From: SAR324 cluster bacterium
GTDB lineage: Bacteria > SAR324 > XYD2-FULL-50-16
Direction: 5' to 3'
Length of the DNA: 13,892 bases
NCBI GenBank assembly: GCA_002401295.1
Contig: NVSR01000002.1
Coordinates: 95,898-109,789, forward strand
Below are positions 9,570-13,892 of the stretch, piece after piece. Both the position numbers and the translations under genes were made by a program. Numbering within the stretch: the stretch's first letter is position 1; every line of letters starts with the position of its first letter. The notes beneath the pieces are model-generated. The model saw only the letters and a list, made by a program, of their open reading frames with translations. It was not told the DNA's origin and made no database searches.

Positions 9570-10922
9570 ATGACACAGGAAGAGTCTCACCTATTTCAGG
9601 TAACAGGTTGGAACCAATCATACCGAATGGCCGCTTACGGAAAAGGTATTTTTTTATTCGACACCGAGGGCAAACGCTATCTGGATGGGATTGGTGGCAC
9701 ACATACGATTACGATTGGACACGGCGTATCCGAAGTAGCGGATGCCATGGCTGAACAAGCACGCAAGGTTAGTTTTGTTCATAAAGCACAGTTCAATAAT
9801 GAGCCTCAAGAACGACTGGCTACCATTGTTGCGGAGATGGCACCAGAGGGCATGAATCATGTTTGTTTCGTCACTGGAGGTTCTACCGCTAATGAGATGG
9901 CGCTGCAAATGGCTCAATACTACCATATGGAGCGTGGCAATAAGACCAAACATAAAATTATTGGACGCTGGCACAGTTATCATGGTCGTACCATTGCCAC
10001 CTTATCCATATCGGGAAATTTATTTGTCCGCAGGACGGGGCCTTTATCTCATTTGGATTTCCCCCATATCCAGGCTCCTCACTGCTACCAATGTCCCTAT
10101 AGCTTGAGTCACCCCACTTGTAAGCTTGCTTGCGCTACCGAACTGGCGAGGACTATCGAACAAGAAGGTCCGGATACGATAGCAGCATTCATCGCGGAGC
10201 CAATCATTGGCGGAGCGGGGAGTGGCATCGTCCCCCCAGCTGGATATTATGAAAAAATTAGAGAAATCTGTGATGAATATGACATTCTCTTAATATCAGA
10301 GGAAGTCATCACGGGTTTTGGGAGAACAGGTAAAAATTTCGGTATCGAACACTGGGATGTAACCCCTGATATTATTACGGCTACTAAGGCTCTCAGTAGT
10401 GGTTATGCCCCCATTGGGGCGGTCATTGTGCGTGAACAATTGCACGATACATTCGTCAATGGAAAAAGGCAGGGCATCCCCACATTCGTAACCTATTCCG
10501 GTCATCCCGTAAGCTGCGCCGCCGCCATTGCCGTGCAAGAATACATCGCCAAGCATGATCTCATTAAGCGTTGCGCTGTGATGGGCGACTATTTAAAAAA
10601 AGAACTCCAAAAGTTGGCAGAACGTGAGCCCTTGATCGGTGATGTTCGAGGCAAAGGCTTATTAGTCGGAATCGAATTTGTTGCCGATAGAGAAAGCCAT
10701 CAACCTTACCCACGCAGGATGAAACTAACGGAGCAAATCATCGGAACTGCCCTTAACAATGGATTAATCATTCGAGGTAGGTTTGGAACGGGTACACAAG
10801 TTGATGGTGATCATATTTTAATTTCTCCCCCTTTTATCATTACCAAAGAAGAGTGCGATGAGCTTGTAGCCACTTTGGAGGTCACGATCAAACAAGTGAG
10901 ACATTCTTTGAATCTAAGATAA
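9570..10922 (+). CDS. Class-III (omega-type) PLP-dependent aminotransferase.
   Basis: HSYHGRT motif. EEVITGFGRTG (the class-III D/EEV-x-TGFGRTG motif). TKALSSG with the catalytic Lys. 450 aa. SD gagg lies 9 nt upstream of the ATG. Confidence 0.9.
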   Translation: MTQEESHLFQVTGWNQSYRMAAYGKGIFLFDTEGKRYLDGIGGTHTITIGHGVSEVADAMAEQARKVSFVHKAQFNNEPQERLATIVAEMAPEGMNHVCFVTGGSTANEMALQMAQYYHMERGNKTKHKIIGRWHSYHGRTIATLSISGNLFVRRTGPLSHLDFPHIQAPHCYQCPYSLSHPTCKLACATELARTIEQEGPDTIAAFIAEPIIGGAGSGIVPPAGYYEKIREICDEYDILLISEEVITGFGRTGKNFGIEHWDVTPDIITATKALSSGYAPIGAVIVREQLHDTFVNGKRQGIPTFVTYSGHPVSCAAAIAVQEYIAKHDLIKRCAVMGDYLKKELQKLAEREPLIGDVRGKGLLVGIEFVADRESHQPYPRRMKLTEQIIGTALNNGLIIRGRFGTGTQVDGDHILISPPFIITKEECDELVATLEVTIKQVRHSLNLR

Positions 10923-10926
10923 AATC

Positions 10927-12672
10927 ATGACTGAACAGCAAAAAATCGAAAATCAAAGTGATTTGATCGTAGCCTACCTGGAGCTACTGGGCGTCGAGTA
11001 TGTCTTTGGCATACCTGGAGGCCATATATCCTCACTCTATGATTCTCTTGCCAGATCCGAACGAAGGGGAGGTCCCAGGGCTGTTCTCACTCGCCATGAG
11101 AGTGGGGCCGCATTCATGGCAGCCAGTTATGCACGTGAAACCGGAAAGATCGGTGTATGCTGTGCTACGACCGGCCCTGGTGTAACAAATATCATTACCG
11201 GTGTGGCAGCGGCTTACGCAGACCACCTCCCACTCCTGGTGCTTACCGGACAGACATTATTGCCAGCCTCTAGCCTGGGGGCTCTGCAAGAGTGTTCGCC
11301 TTATCAAGGCCCCTTTCCGGATATTGTTGACATCATGGGCATGATGGAACATTGCACCTGTTATAACGCCCTTGTAACTCACCCTCAACAATTAGAAAAA
11401 AAGCTGGCTGCAGCCATTATTACAGCGCTTCAACCCCTATGCGGCCCAGCGCATTTGAGTATCCCCGTTGATATTCTACGCTCGCCACATACTGGAGAAC
11501 TCAATTTCCCCAATTTGCCGGAATTAGCCGCACCTGCCACAGCAGCGTCTTTCTTGGACTCTGTCGCCCTGGATAAACTTTGGCAGGAAATTTTAATTGT
11601 TACCCGTGAAGGACGTCAAGTTGCTCTATTTGTGGGCAATGAATGTGCTGATGCGACTGAAGAAATCTTAGCCTTTGCTGAACTGCTGAGTGCCCCCATC
11701 GTCACCTCGTTAAGAGGGAAATCCAGAGTTAGAGCGGACCACCCCTTGGTTTTTGGTGTTTTTGGTGCTTTTGGACATAAGAGCGCGCGCCAGGCATTAG
11801 CGGAGGAATCGGTTGATTTGATTTTAGCCATTGGTACCAGTCTTGGCCAGTGGGCCACTGCAGGCTGGCAATCCACATTACTCAACAATAAGATGGTGCA
11901 CATTGATCACACCAATACTTATTTTCCTCGGTCTCCCTTTGCCCGATTACATGTGCGTGGGACGATTAAGATAATTTTTCAAGAGCTCGTCACTCGCCTA
12001 AAAAACATGGGTTTTGATGCCAAGATCCCCCAGAAGCAACGATCACAAGTACAGCATTTAAGGTACAGCCCTCCTCAAGTCCAGCTGCAAGCTCCAGAGG
12101 GCTACCACAGCAACCAAGTACCAATCAAACCTCAGCGCCTTATCTATGAGATGATGCGAGGGTTTCCGGCAGAAACCCGGTTTGCCGTAGACACAGGCAA
12201 TTGCCTGGCCTGGATGACTCATTATTTTTTCCCCAAACAAGCTAAAAATTACAGACTGTTATCTACCGGACAGCCATCAACGGGATGGGCACCCGGAGGG
12301 GCCGTCGGCATTGCCATGGGCAGCCCTGGAACTCCCGTTGTTTGTATTACGGGAGATGGCAGTTTTTTAATGTATGGCCAAGAAATCACCGTCGCTGTAG
12401 CGGAACAATTACCTGTGATTTTTATCATCTTGAATGATTGTTCTTACGGGATGATCAGAGACAGGCATCGCCAAACAGGCAAGGAGCCCCTGGAATTCGC
12501 GATTCCTCCCGTGAATTTCGCCAAAATGGCTGAAGCTGTAGGAGCGAAGGGCTATACCATCCGTGATCCGGAATTTTTTGAGCAGATTGATTTTAAAAAA
12601 CTTTGCAAAACAGGCCCAACTGTTTTAGACGTACATATTGATCCCAATGAGCTTCCGCCGATTGGTAACTAA
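10927..12672 (+). CDS. Thiamine-diphosphate-dependent enzyme of the acetolactate-synthase / 2-keto-acid decarboxylase (carboligase) family.
   Basis: N-terminal Pyr domain has VEYVFGIPGG. C-terminal ThDP motif is GDGSFLMYGQ-x-ILND (GDG-X24-N). Three-domain 581 aa architecture. Its start is 4 nt after the aminotransferase stop, suggesting translational coupling. Confidence 0.9.
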   Translation: MTEQQKIENQSDLIVAYLELLGVEYVFGIPGGHISSLYDSLARSERRGGPRAVLTRHESGAAFMAASYARETGKIGVCCATTGPGVTNIITGVAAAYADHLPLLVLTGQTLLPASSLGALQECSPYQGPFPDIVDIMGMMEHCTCYNALVTHPQQLEKKLAAAIITALQPLCGPAHLSIPVDILRSPHTGELNFPNLPELAAPATAASFLDSVALDKLWQEILIVTREGRQVALFVGNECADATEEILAFAELLSAPIVTSLRGKSRVRADHPLVFGVFGAFGHKSARQALAEESVDLILAIGTSLGQWATAGWQSTLLNNKMVHIDHTNTYFPRSPFARLHVRGTIKIIFQELVTRLKNMGFDAKIPQKQRSQVQHLRYSPPQVQLQAPEGYHSNQVPIKPQRLIYEMMRGFPAETRFAVDTGNCLAWMTHYFFPKQAKNYRLLSTGQPSTGWAPGGAVGIAMGSPGTPVVCITGDGSFLMYGQEITVAVAEQLPVIFIILNDCSYGMIRDRHRQTGKEPLEFAIPPVNFAKMAEAVGAKGYTIRDPEFFEQIDFKKLCKTGPTVLDVHIDPNELPPIGN

Positions 12673-12716
12673 AGACCTCTCAAAGATGCACATTAACCCT
12701 TTATACTGAAAAAAAG

Positions 12717-13619
12717 ATGTCAATTAAAAAAACTCCACCCAGAAGAGTGCTGATCAATTCCCTTCCCAAGAGCGGGACCCATCTTTTGGCTAGAGTCGTT
12801 GATATTTTGGGATATAAGGAATATTTTTCCCACCTCGGTTATGTGCGGGGTAGCCCTCGTTTCTTTAATTATAGGGAGGTCAAAACAGCACTGGGTATTG
12901 ATTTGAGGAGTCAACCACCAGCTCTAAGTTCCCAACGGGATGAAGCCTCCAGGTTTCCTGAAGGGAGCACCGATCAAATAGGGATAGGCAGTTTAACACA
13001 GTTTTATGTGGAGAGTGCCAAGGTCGAGCAATGGTTAAAACTTTTACCAGATTATCGGTATATTTTAGGGCATATCCCTTGGACTCCAGTTTTGCCACCC
13101 ATTTTGAAAAGTTTAAACTACAAGCAGATATTTATCATCCGAGATCCTCGTGCTGTAGTAACCTCCCTGCTCTCCTTTATTTTGGACACCAAGGGTATGC
13201 CGGAGCCACACTTTCTGGAAGAGGATTTCAGGGCAATGACCTTAGAACAGCGACTGAGTTTTCTTTTAGATGGAGGGTTCGCAGCCAAAGCGGGTGTAGA
13301 GATTAAAGGTTTTACGGAAACCTACCGTGCCATGCTTGCTTGGCAAAATGATCCAAACTGCCTGTTTGTACGGTTCGAAGATTTAATCGGCAGCAGAGGG
13401 GGTGGTAATGATCAAAAACAAGAAATTGTGATACAAAAAATCACCAAACACCTCGACATCCCTCTGAACCGGAAAAATGCAATGCAAGAGGTTTATAACC
13501 CATCATCACGCACTTTTAGAATGGGTAAAATTGACAGTTGGAAGCAATCATTCGATGGGCTGGACCTCCAGCGTTTAACCGATTATTGCCAACTAATTTG
13601 CCGCGAAGCAGGCTATTAA
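12717..13619 (+). CDS. PAPS-dependent sulfotransferase (Sulfotransfer_1/3-like).
   Basis: 5'-PSB-like motif LPKSGTHLL near the N-terminus and 3'-PB-like FIIRDPRAVVTSL. 300 aa. Lies 44 bp after the ThDP gene with no terminator between them. Confidence 0.8.
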   Translation: MSIKKTPPRRVLINSLPKSGTHLLARVVDILGYKEYFSHLGYVRGSPRFFNYREVKTALGIDLRSQPPALSSQRDEASRFPEGSTDQIGIGSLTQFYVESAKVEQWLKLLPDYRYILGHIPWTPVLPPILKSLNYKQIFIIRDPRAVVTSLLSFILDTKGMPEPHFLEEDFRAMTLEQRLSFLLDGGFAAKAGVEIKGFTETYRAMLAWQNDPNCLFVRFEDLIGSRGGGNDQKQEIVIQKITKHLDIPLNRKNAMQEVYNPSSRTFRMGKIDSWKQSFDGLDLQRLTDYCQLICREAGY

Positions 13620-13710
13620 ACTAGGATACACTTCCAGAACAGAATAACTACTTTCCTCTGCTCTATTGAAAGAATTTTGAGGAAAATATCCTGATTACAA
13701 GAGGGAGATC

Positions 13711-13892
13711 ATGTTCATCTCACATAAGTACAAAGTTATTTTTATTCATATCCAGAGGACTGGTGGTAATTCCATCCATAAGATATTCCAAGAGCATGAT
13801 CCGGAGTTACAGGAGAGTATCCCAGTCCACTCTTTAAAAAAGCGCACAAAACATTGCTTCGCCTCAGATACTAAAGAAGCGATTGGTGAGGA
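13711..13892 (+). CDS. Second sulfotransferase, N-terminal fragment of 60 aa; the gene runs off the window edge.
   Basis: ATG preceded by agagggag SD. KVIFIHIQRTGGNSI resembles the 5'-PSB motif (F.H.PKTGGT) of Sulfotransfer_2 / carbohydrate sulfotransferases. The reading frame is open to the end of the window. Confidence 0.6.
   Translation, partial: MFISHKYKVIFIHIQRTGGNSIHKIFQEHDPELQESIPVHSLKKRTKHCFASDTKEAIGE

Follow-up and report, generated by a model that had tools for sequence, protein, structure and literature searches.

The window analysed here, a stretch of 13,892 nucleotides from a SAR324 cluster bacterium contig, ends in four genes that all lie on the + strand. ORF calling placed a class-III (omega-type) aminotransferase of 450 aa at 9570-10922, an acetolactate-synthase-like ThDP enzyme of 581 aa at 10927-12672, a PAPS-type Sulfotransfer_1 sulfotransferase of 300 aa at 12717-13619, and the first 60 codons of a Sulfotransfer_2-type sulfotransferase at 13711-13892. 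The gaps between them are 4, 44, and 91 bp in gene order, and a site scan found no terminator-like + strand site within any of the three; the sole such sites (10023-10039 and 12845-12860) are both intragenic. The operon-like layout proposed in the preliminary description is thus supported, as is its statement that the operon continues past the window edge: the fourth frame is open at the window end, where the contig stops in both metagenome assemblies, JGI and ENA. In protein sequence, the window equals, or very nearly equals, an NCBI SAR324 MAG with a contig that carries PCI30777-PCI30779. Since the upstream side of the window holds an exporter and unrelated genes, the remainder of the cluster must be downstream.

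The aminotransferase matched Pfam Aminotran_3 with 308.7 bits, and its best solved relatives are amine/omega-transaminases. Alignment with these relatives and with orthologues showed that the PLP lysine K273 is kept and that E244, a Glu common to the clade of this enzyme, takes the place of the pyridine-N aspartate. The ThDP enzyme matched Pfam TPP_enzyme_N, TPP_enzyme_M, and TPP_enzyme_C with 127, 84, and 114 bits, respectively, and fell below the cut-off of every NCBIfam equivalog model, the best being acolac_lg (279 vs 538). Its catalytic motifs, Glu58 and GDGSF(476)...N503-D504, are intact in alignment with BbmA 8x3x; BbmA and CsmA are its closest solved relatives.

The third protein scored 58.7 bits against PF00685 (Sulfotransfer_1; cut-off 22) and was 47-55% identical to the sulfotransferase encoded directly 3' of the ThDP gene in three related loci (L003, L004, L008) and in Microcystis. 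Its PKSGTH (residues 17-22), His119, and RDPR (142-145)...S150 line up with SULT1 structures and are shared by orthologues, indicating that the PAPS-binding motifs are retained. The ATG at 12717 is the correct start; the shorter JGI/ENA call (277 aa) cuts off the PKSGTH loop. The 60-residue fragment of the fourth protein had no Pfam match, and it was identified by its similarity to a 263-aa PF03567 (Sulfotransfer_2) protein of the related locus L002 (67% identity over 58 aa, E 7e-25), in which the HIQRTGG loop is conserved. All four gene identities in the preliminary description were therefore correct, three by Pfam searches and the fourth by this match, and its distinction between two sulfotransferase types was borne out, the third protein having PKSGTH and RDPR and the fragment QRTGG.

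The earlier statement that no canonical pathway has this gene set did not hold. The aminotransferase, ThDP enzyme, and Sulfotransfer_1 recur with 47-72% protein identity in a cross-phylum cluster family, which includes a Microcystis locus matching the agd (aeruginoguanidine/microguanidine) cluster. The recurring set comprises an adenylation enzyme, a carrier protein, a radical SAM enzyme, Sulfotransfer_3, Sulfotransfer_2, chorismate lyase, the ThDP enzyme, Sulfotransfer_1, and a thioester reductase, and is joined only sometimes by Aminotran_3. It was found in Trichodesmium, Spirulina, Coleofasciculaceae, cyanobacterium SBLK, Aphanizomenon, Dolichospermum, Scytonema, Microcystis, Marithrix, Thioploca, and Desulfobacterales. 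When 83 ThDP homologue loci were placed on an NJ tree, the 23 with at least one sulfotransferase neighbour formed one clade, the other 60 being without any. The window's enzyme was placed inside this clade, and the neighbourhood survey found sulfotransferase linkage in every related locus of the clade.

The aminotransferase is the variable part of the cluster family. Its orthologues are 60-72% identical across related clusters, and those adjoining or near the ThDP gene in four compact cyanobacterial clusters (Spirulina CCY15215 L012, cyanobacterium SBLK L008, Trichodesmium L010, and Coleofasciculaceae L029) are 60-69% identical. The nearest clusters L002 and L003 carry a class I/II aminotransferase instead, and none was present within reach in L004, L022, L091, or Microcystis L032. 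The ThDP enzymes of the four compact clusters are 53-58% identical to that of the window, and the Sulfotransfer_1 protein of cyanobacterium SBLK is 47% identical. In these clusters, the complete cassette (Sulfotransfer_3, Sulfotransfer_2, reductase, and chorismate lyase) lies upstream, whereas the upstream side of the window shows none of it. No reported product was found for any of the four.

Two Microcystis loci provided the closest link to a known product. In L032, the order is Sulfotransfer_2, ThDP enzyme, Sulfotransfer_1, two 270-aa proteins with no Pfam matches, reductase, NRPS (A-PCP-C), Sulfotransfer_3, and radical SAM enzyme; in L093, it is sulfatase, chorismate lyase, O-methyltransferase, prenyltransferase, NRPS (A-MT-PCP-C), Aminotran_3, O-methyltransferase, reductase, and ABC exporter. 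Members of the L032/L093 protein clusters are also carried by stand-alone 32-48 kb GenBank records of PCC Microcystis strains. The agd cluster of Microcystis was reportedly described by Pancrace et al. 2019. It contains an NRPS, three sulfotransferases, a sulfatase, and prenyltransferases (PMC12371840), and the gene content of L032, L093, and the PCC records fits the published description (PMC12371840; PMC10304443). The window resembles these loci in its orthologous ThDP enzyme (53%), the Sulfotransfer_1 gene directly downstream of it (55%), and its class-III aminotransferase (68% to the orthologue in L093), and genes for a Sulfotransfer_2 protein, a sulfatase, and an ABC exporter are found nearby in both. 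In contrast to agd, an arginine NRPS, a prenyltransferase, and AgdS/T-like genes were not seen within the window, the gene order differs in that the aminotransferase gene directly precedes the ThDP gene, and the host is SAR324 rather than a cyanobacterium.

We consider it likely that these four genes open a natural-product gene cluster of an uncultured SAR324 bacterium, continued beyond the contig end, and that this cluster is kin to the Microcystis agd cluster. The four-gene set is thus real and interesting, yet it has precedent because of its relation to a cluster assigned to aeruginoguanidine and microguanidine, which are sulfated toxins. Since the nearest relatives (L002, L003, L005, and L091) carry other partners, among them a molybdopterin-oxidoreductase/A/C fusion, a carbamoyltransferase, and a B12-radical SAM enzyme, the SAR324 end product is probably different from those of agd.

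From the gene families, catalytic motifs, orthology, and conserved linkage observed, we infer the substrates, step order, and product of the SAR324 pathway as follows. The cluster, being of the same family as agd, probably carries a cassette for a poly-O-sulfated 1-aryl-2-aminopropan-1-ol unit. A trisulfated 1-aryl-1-hydroxy-2-propylamine unit is reportedly part of the aeruginoguanidines (Ishida et al. 2002). The genes for chorismate lyase, adenylation enzyme, carrier protein, reductase, and a third sulfotransferase would lie beyond the sequence covered by both assemblies, and their steps are modelled on syntenic relatives: chorismate lyase would form 4-hydroxybenzoate, the adenylation enzyme and carrier protein would load it, and the thioester reductase would release the aldehyde, with ring decoration perhaps by a radical SAM enzyme or hydroxylase, likewise encoded outside the window. 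The ThDP enzyme is proposed to be a carboligase that decarboxylates pyruvate and transfers the two-carbon unit, as hydroxyethyl-ThDP, onto a 4-hydroxybenzaldehyde-type aldehyde to give an aryl-acetylcarbinol, the C2 ketone of which would be aminated by the class-III aminotransferase. Sulfotransfer_1 and Sulfotransfer_2 would then transfer sulfate from PAPS to hydroxyl groups, an O-sulfation in which the third, downstream sulfotransferase probably shares, and the product would leave through the divergent ABC transporter.

The two central steps have a mechanistic model. Phenylacetylcarbinol is made from benzaldehyde and pyruvate by AHAS-type enzymes and is converted to norephedrine-type amines by omega-transaminases; a route by ThDP carboligase and transaminase has been suggested for the alkaloids of Ephedra and Catha, and biocatalytic cascades of AHAS-I and omega-transaminase make use of it. 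In the window, genes for these two enzyme classes are adjacent, in the order that the chemistry needs, and the predicted skeleton is likewise aryl-CH(OH)-CH(NH2)-CH3. The likeness is mechanistic only, without sequence-level membership, and the predicted bacterial product differs in its phenolic ring and sulfate esters. The literature searched held no biochemical work on the ThDP enzyme, aminotransferase, or sulfotransferase of the cassette.

The small sulfated amino metabolite predicted in the preliminary description fits the gene families, orthology, and linkage. The generic 2-keto backbone that it assigned to the ThDP enzyme is less likely: the syntenic partners of related clusters indicate an aromatic substrate derived from 4-hydroxybenzoate. 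A non-aromatic scaffold, in which the ThDP enzyme would form or decarboxylate an aliphatic 2-keto acid before amination by the aminotransferase and decoration by the two sulfotransferases, is an unlikely reading. It would suit a window in which no substrate-defining gene (chorismate lyase, adenylation enzyme, or reductase) was seen, and clade members such as L091 and L013, in which chorismate lyase was not found within reach. However, chorismate lyase was detected in 11 sulfotransferase-linked loci and a thioester reductase of the aldehyde-forming type in 16 such loci and in L091, and the Microcystis aminotransferase orthologue shares its cluster with chorismate lyase. Quite unlikely is a ScyA-like route from aromatic amino acids, in which the aminotransferase would supply arylpyruvates and the ThDP enzyme would couple two keto acids to an acyloin for sulfation. 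ScyA of scytonemin biosynthesis is also an ALS-fold ThDP enzyme of secondary metabolism, and the class I/II aminotransferases of L002 and L003 belong to a class usually acting on alpha-amino acids. The similarity is moderate, however: the 214-230 bits against ScyA and ScyA-related NCBIfam models are far under the ScyA model cut-offs of 1000-1020, the window has sulfotransferases as partners in place of ScyB or ScyC, and its aminotransferase is nearest to amine/omega-transaminases rather than alpha-amino-acid enzymes. Nor would this route account for the chorismate lyase, adenylation enzyme, carrier protein, and reductase, which are conserved.

Strongly disfavoured is a primary-metabolic pair beside unrelated sulfotransferases, either Tpa/Xsc of taurine/sulfoacetaldehyde catabolism or IlvB of branched-chain amino-acid synthesis. 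The ThDP protein bears the NCBI annotation 'acetolactate synthase large subunit', stand-alone homologues 45-59% identical to it occur without sulfotransferases in many genomes, and a class-III aminotransferase adjoining an ALS-like ThDP enzyme in a sulfur-related setting recalls Xsc/Tpa. Against this, ALS models scored at most 279 with cut-offs of at least 509, no NCBIfam equivalog cut-off was reached, and Xsc was absent among the 25 NCBIfam matches listed. Genes for a small subunit, ilvC, pta, or a taurine transporter were not found in the window, in which PAPS sulfotransferase genes lie alongside rather than genes for handling sulfonates. The sulfotransferase linkage of the ThDP enzyme is clade-wide, and aminotransferase and ThDP genes occur together in sulfotransferase-linked loci only. 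On these scores, the two enzymes are not an Xsc/Tpa or IlvB-type pair, an outcome that would have told against the preliminary description.

A divergent exporter and a nearby sulfatase had also been described, and both were recovered. The ABC exporter (7545-9173, - strand) passes the cyclic-peptide export model TIGR01194 with 314.5 bits (cut-off 286.2) and is of the SyrD/PvdE type. The related cluster L091 contains a tandem fusion of two 34-35% relatives of it, and Microcystis L093 also terminates in an ABC exporter. Judged from these genes, the exporter would belong to the cluster and probably exports its product. Between it and the biosynthetic genes lies an AT-rich intergenic region of 396 bp (9174-9569; GC ~0.36-0.40 vs 0.46-0.50 within genes), presumed to be a divergent promoter region. 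Two overlapping promoter-like + strand matches were found at 9309-9338, the count in the scanned region not being above shuffle expectation.

The sulfatase (383-2263, + strand; PF00884, 152 bits) is an exported, lipoprotein-type enzyme of the Ser type; its translation contains VSAC, which is lipobox-like, and the active-site motif S-T-P-A-R. Genes for sulfatases or formylglycine enzymes are also present in L003, L005, L020, and Microcystis L093, and a sulfatase is part of the agd description (PMC12371840), circumstantial evidence that the enzyme is possibly an accessory of the cluster. It is uncertain whether a 212-aa protein at 2326-2964 (- strand), which belongs to no Pfam family, is part of the cluster. 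A small unannotated protein, encoded next to the thioester reductase in L002 and L003, is similar to its C-terminal ~120 residues (37% identity and 93 bits by tblastn to the 150-aa L002 protein); the copies in L002 and L003 share 57% identity.

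The 3' part of the window carries four co-directional genes on the forward strand, which encode a class-III aminotransferase (9570-10922, 450 aa; Pfam Aminotran_3, 308.7 bits), an acetolactate synthase-like ThDP enzyme (10927-12672, 581 aa; TPP_enzyme_N/M/C, 127, 84, and 114 bits), a Sulfotransfer_1 sulfotransferase (12717-13619, 300 aa; 58.7 bits against a Pfam cut-off of 22), and the first 60 residues of an open frame that runs from 13711 to the last window base. This fragment had no Pfam match and was assigned to the Sulfotransfer_2 type by sequence comparison. The gaps in the row are 4, 44, and 91 bp, and a terminator-like site on the forward strand was found in none of the three. 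The product of a divergent gene upstream (7545-9173, reverse strand) passed the TIGR01194 model for cyclic peptide export of the SyrD/PvdE type (314.5 bits against a cut-off of 286.2), and a sulfatase gene (383-2263, forward strand) was recognized by Pfam. Thus, the ORFs, the Pfam and TIGR01194 matches, and the terminator scan agreed with the preliminary description as to the gene row, the named identities, the uninterrupted gaps, the divergent ABC exporter, and the sulfatase.

Hundreds of proteins are homologous to the ThDP protein (52-71% identity). We collected 80 genomic and about a dozen metagenomic loci and used tblastn to locate reference proteins in them. Sulfotransferase neighbors (one or more) were present at 23 of the 83 ThDP loci placed in a neighbor-joining tree, and these 23 formed one clade; the 60 loci outside it had no such neighbor. 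The window enzyme was placed inside the sulfotransferase-linked clade, beside the homologous proteins P0002, P0003, and P0008 (locus L091) and as a sister to those of L002, L003, and L005. Since the linkage extends over the whole clade and the window genes are orthologous, the sulfotransferases are linked to the cassette and are not chance neighbors; the survey of neighborhoods gave no sign that they come apart from the ThDP gene in the loci of this clade, although a separation in related genomes had been raised as a possibility. Outside the clade the ThDP gene stands alone among unrelated genes, for example next to an RNA cyclase and a phosphate transporter (L018) or an aconitase and a TonB-dependent receptor (L060). 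Such stand-alone homologues include close ones (45-59% identity; L006, L011, L016-L019, L021, L026, L040, L043-L089) from Desulfobacteraceae, Parabeggiatoa, and many Beta- and Gammaproteobacteria.

Alignment showed that the window ThDP enzyme retains the catalytic Glu58 and the GDGSF...ND cofactor motif. Its nearest solved relatives were BbmA (291 bits) and CsmA (249 bits), followed by catabolic acetolactate synthases. An assignment as acetolactate synthase IlvB/AlsS was rejected, because the scores were 279 against 538 for TIGR00118 and 260 against 510 for AlsS, and no ilvN/ilvC or alsD partners are present in the window. The Xsc/Tpa pair of taurine catabolism was likewise rejected: no Xsc model appeared among the 25 NCBIfam matches listed, the weakest of which scored 195.5 bits, and the surrounding genes are those of sulfotransferases and an exporter. 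The earlier concern that the ThDP enzyme and the aminotransferase might be a true Xsc/Tpa or other primary-metabolic pair is thus answered by the scores, which reached no NCBIfam equivalog cut-off, by the absence of the partner genes, and by the clade-wide linkage to sulfotransferases.

The motifs PKSGTH (residues 17-22), H119, and RDPR (142-145)...S150 of the Sulfotransfer_1 protein align with those of the SULT structures 5x2b and 1cjm and are kept in the orthologues. The protein is accordingly predicted from its sequence to contain the PAPS-binding elements of PF00685, namely the 5'-phosphosulfate loop (PKxGTT-like), the 3'-phosphate motif (RxPxD...S), and the catalytic His. The suspicion that PAPS-binding residues might be missing from this sulfotransferase was therefore dispelled by the alignment. 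The gene lies directly 3' of the ThDP gene, as do its orthologues in L003, L004, L008, and Microcystis (47-55% identity), and its product is 55% identical to the Microcystis 'sulfotransferase I' in the PCC 9810 and PCC 9811 records. In the JGI and ENA gene calls this sulfotransferase begins 23 codons late (window 12717-12785; 277 aa) and loses the PKSGTH PAPS-binding loop, whereas a start at the 12717 ATG, as in the 300-aa NCBI entry PCI30779, brings the loop back and agrees with the orthologues. The Sulfotransfer_2 fragment and a 263-aa Sulfotransfer_2 protein of L002 are 67% identical over 58 residues (E 7e-25), and the HIQRTGG loop is common to both. Sulfotransfer_3 was not seen within the window, whose contig ends inside the Sulfotransfer_2 gene. 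A further 272-aa Sulfotransfer_1 paralogue (35-39% identity) lies at 14306-15124 of L002; its PKSGT loop is changed to SRGGAV, it has no Pfam match, and it may be an inactive sulfotransferase-like protein.

The closest relatives of the window aminotransferase are amine/omega-transaminases, and the PLP lysine Lys273 is conserved. It is up to 72% identical to metagenomic proteins, 60-69% identical to the aminotransferases that adjoin the ThDP gene or lie close to it in L008, L010, L012, and L029, and 68% identical to the Microcystis protein P0217 in the cluster L093. Two of its homologues, from SAR324 and Candidatus Kentrum, are on contigs whose lengths (88,427 and 42,835 bp) equal those of the contigs with the ThDP homologues P0051 and P0052, so that the two genes probably share a contig in each case. 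In fold-type-I aminotransferases an aspartate (ADEV in solved omega-transaminases) holds the pyridine nitrogen of PLP; at this position the window protein has Glu244 (window 10299-10301, in SEEV). Glu was present at this position in all ten cluster-linked orthologues compared (65-72% identity), whereas seven more distant relatives (48-61%) and the PDB enzymes had Asp; as judged from these alignments, Glu244 is a signature of the aminotransferase clade.

Around the sulfotransferase-linked ThDP genes a common set of genes recurs: an adenylation enzyme with a carrier protein, a radical SAM enzyme, Sulfotransfer_3 and Sulfotransfer_2 proteins, an Rv2949c-like chorismate pyruvate-lyase, the ThDP enzyme, Sulfotransfer_1, and a thioester reductase, which is a separate protein in some loci and is joined to condensation and carrier domains in others; Aminotran_3 and an APS kinase are each present in some cases. 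The aminotransferase is an optional module of the cluster family. The set was found in Trichodesmium (L010), Spirulina (L012), cyanobacterium SBLK (L008), Coleofasciculaceae (L029), Aphanizomenon/Dolichospermum (L022, L023), and Scytonema (L004), in Microcystis (L028, L030, L032, L033, L035), in Marithrix and Thioploca (L013, L015), and in Desulfobacterales-type contigs (L002, L003, L005, L091). The preliminary description had named no canonical pathway with this exact gene set; the view that the set has no precedent does not hold, since the set recurs across phyla and includes Microcystis loci matching agd, the aeruginoguanidine/microguanidine cluster. Directly 5' of the ThDP cassette, L002 (1817-7183), L003 (2071-7584), and L005 (4644-9989) encode fusions of 1,780-1,840 aa with an unusual architecture of molybdopterin oxidoreductase (Molybdop_Fe4S4, Molybdopterin, Molydop_binding), adenylation, weak carrier, and condensation domains.

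In Microcystis L032 the order is Sulfotransfer_2, ThDP enzyme, Sulfotransfer_1, two tandem 270-aa proteins that lack Pfam matches, thioester reductase, A-PCP-C NRPS, Sulfotransfer_3, and radical SAM. L093, which holds P0217, contains in order a sulfatase, a chorismate lyase, an O-methyltransferase, a prenyltransferase, an NRPS (A-MT-PCP-C), Aminotran_3, an O-methyltransferase, a reductase, and an ABC exporter. The 90%-identity clusters of the L032 genes include proteins on stand-alone GenBank records of 32-48 kb from Microcystis PCC 9624, 9810, 9811, and 10613, and agd is a 34-kb NRPS cluster in 11 Microcystis strains (PMC10304443). There is strong but indirect evidence that L032 and L093 are agd. 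The class-III aminotransferase, the ThDP enzyme (53% identical to the Microcystis enzyme), and the downstream Sulfotransfer_1 protein of the window are orthologues of the Microcystis proteins. The locus belongs to the agd-type cluster family as a new and truncated variant, and its host is an uncultured SAR324 bacterium.

The window differs from agd in several respects. On a contig that ends 3', it has no visible arginine-activating NRPS (AgdJ) or guanidine prenyltransferases (AgdS/T), and genes of these types were not within reach in the nearest relatives L002, L003, L005, and L091 either. The aminotransferase gene is immediately 5' of the ThDP gene, and the upstream side is formed by the SyrD-type exporter followed by DUF697, binding-protein, and Band7 genes. 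Among the four nearest clusters there are partners not seen in the Microcystis loci examined, namely the molybdopterin-oxidoreductase/adenylation/condensation fusion, a carbamoyltransferase, and a B12-binding radical SAM enzyme, and these clusters contain a class I/II aminotransferase or no aminotransferase. Since the window and the nearest clusters differ from agd in partners and layout, it is likely that the SAR324 end product is other than aeruginoguanidine.

Aeruginoguanidines reportedly carry 1-(4-hydroxy-3-hydroxymethyl)phenyl-1-hydroxy-2-propylamine with all three hydroxyls sulfated, a finding attributed to Ishida et al. 2002. It is probable that the window genes are the visible start of an agd-family cluster and belong to a cassette for such a poly-O-sulfated 1-aryl-2-aminopropan-1-ol unit. 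We infer the substrates, the order of the steps, and the product as follows. Chorismate lyase would yield 4-hydroxybenzoate, which would be loaded by the adenylation enzyme and the carrier protein and released as an aldehyde by the thioester reductase. The ThDP enzyme would then add a hydroxyethyl unit from pyruvate to the aldehyde, the aminotransferase would convert the ketone to an amine, and three kinds of sulfotransferase would esterify the three hydroxyls. The hydroxymethyl group might be made by the radical SAM enzyme or by the Asp/Arg-hydroxylase domain that L004 carries in fusion with Sulfotransfer_3. The skeleton of the unit, aryl-CH(OH)-CH(NH2)-CH3, is a C6-C1 piece plus two carbons, and the conserved genes agree with this route at each step. 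The proposed carboligation and transamination have established counterparts: AHAS-type enzymes couple benzaldehyde and pyruvate to phenylacetylcarbinol, which omega-transaminases convert to norephedrine-type amines. From their conserved motifs and nearest solved relatives, the window enzymes are predicted to be competent. The earlier proposal of a small sulfated amino metabolite is supported in general terms.

A coupling of keto acids as by ScyA, the acyloin-forming enzyme of scytonemin synthesis, would use the same ThDP gene differently. However, the ThDP protein scores far below the family cut-offs, and this reaction would leave the chorismate lyase, adenylation enzyme, carrier protein, and reductase unaccounted for; we regard it as quite improbable. 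The window locus might instead make a non-aromatic sulfated amine. No chorismate lyase, adenylation enzyme with carrier protein, or thioester reductase was found in the 13.9-kb window, at whose 3' side the contig ends; genes of these kinds recur in the related clusters, and a non-aromatic product is unlikely.

A search of the accessible literature returned no published enzymology for the trisulfated aromatic unit of aeruginoguanidines and nothing usable on the function of BbmA and CsmA or on the agd gene names. The agd-family assignment offers a testable biosynthetic route to this unit. It also connects an anonymous 'acetolactate synthase/aminotransferase/sulfotransferase' locus of the uncultured, globally abundant deep-ocean lineage SAR324 with a family of clusters whose product class is known, and it extends the cassette well past Microcystis to Trichodesmium, Aphanizomenon, Dolichospermum, large sulfur bacteria, Desulfobacterales, SAR324, and possibly Chloroflexi. 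Should the proposed chemistry be correct, the ThDP/omega-transaminase pair would be a natural counterpart of the norephedrine-type amino-alcohol cascade and a source of candidate biocatalysts. More tentatively, and with a rather low probability, the cassette in SAR324, Desulfobacterales, large sulfur bacteria, and Kentrophoros-symbiont lineages may yield a free or otherwise conjugated poly-sulfated phenylpropanolamine, a bacterial ephedrine-type amine, rather than an arginine peptide. The carboligase and transaminase would build it, the SyrD-like pump would carry it out of the cell, and the lipoprotein sulfatase might unmask it there. Such compounds would form a widespread class of sulfated signals or toxins of sulfur-cycling bacteria that has not yet been described.

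Near-identical contigs were found in a JGI metagenome (Ga0071100_1001105, 14,144 bp) and in ENA (scaffold_455, 27,447 bp). Both stop at the 3' end of the window (13892), exactly the same point inside the Sulfotransfer_2 gene, and the break in two independent assemblies points to a repeat, or to a region that varies between strains, immediately 3' of it. No 3' extension was obtained from a genome-contig search with the sulfotransferase or from metagenome-contig searches with protein and exact DNA. An exact search with the 300-aa sulfotransferase sequence was empty because the gene had been called with a different start. The window aminotransferase, ThDP enzyme, and sulfotransferase share 90%-identity clusters with PCI30777, PCI30778, and PCI30779, which have the NCBI names 'aspartate aminotransferase family protein', 'acetolactate synthase large subunit', and 'sulfotransferase'; the window sulfatase shares such a cluster with PCI30769. 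The binding protein and the ABC exporter of the window match PCI30774 and PCI30776 at 100% identity.

The window sulfatase has a lipoprotein-like signal (…AVSAC) and the serine-type active-site motif S-T-P-A-R, which normally requires a radical SAM maturase. The related clusters L003, L005, and L020 as well as Microcystis L093 also have genes for a sulfatase or a formylglycine enzyme. The DUF697, binding-protein, and Band7 genes were rejected as cluster members, since none of the other clusters has relatives of them nearby. Between the DUF697 and binding-protein genes lie 900 bp of low G+C content (about 0.36; 4426-5327), and the sole ORF called there encodes 62 aa. At 2326-2964 on the reverse strand, the C-terminal ~120 residues of a 212-aa protein resemble the small protein, itself without a Pfam match, that adjoins the thioester reductase in L002 and L003 (37% identity, 93 bits).
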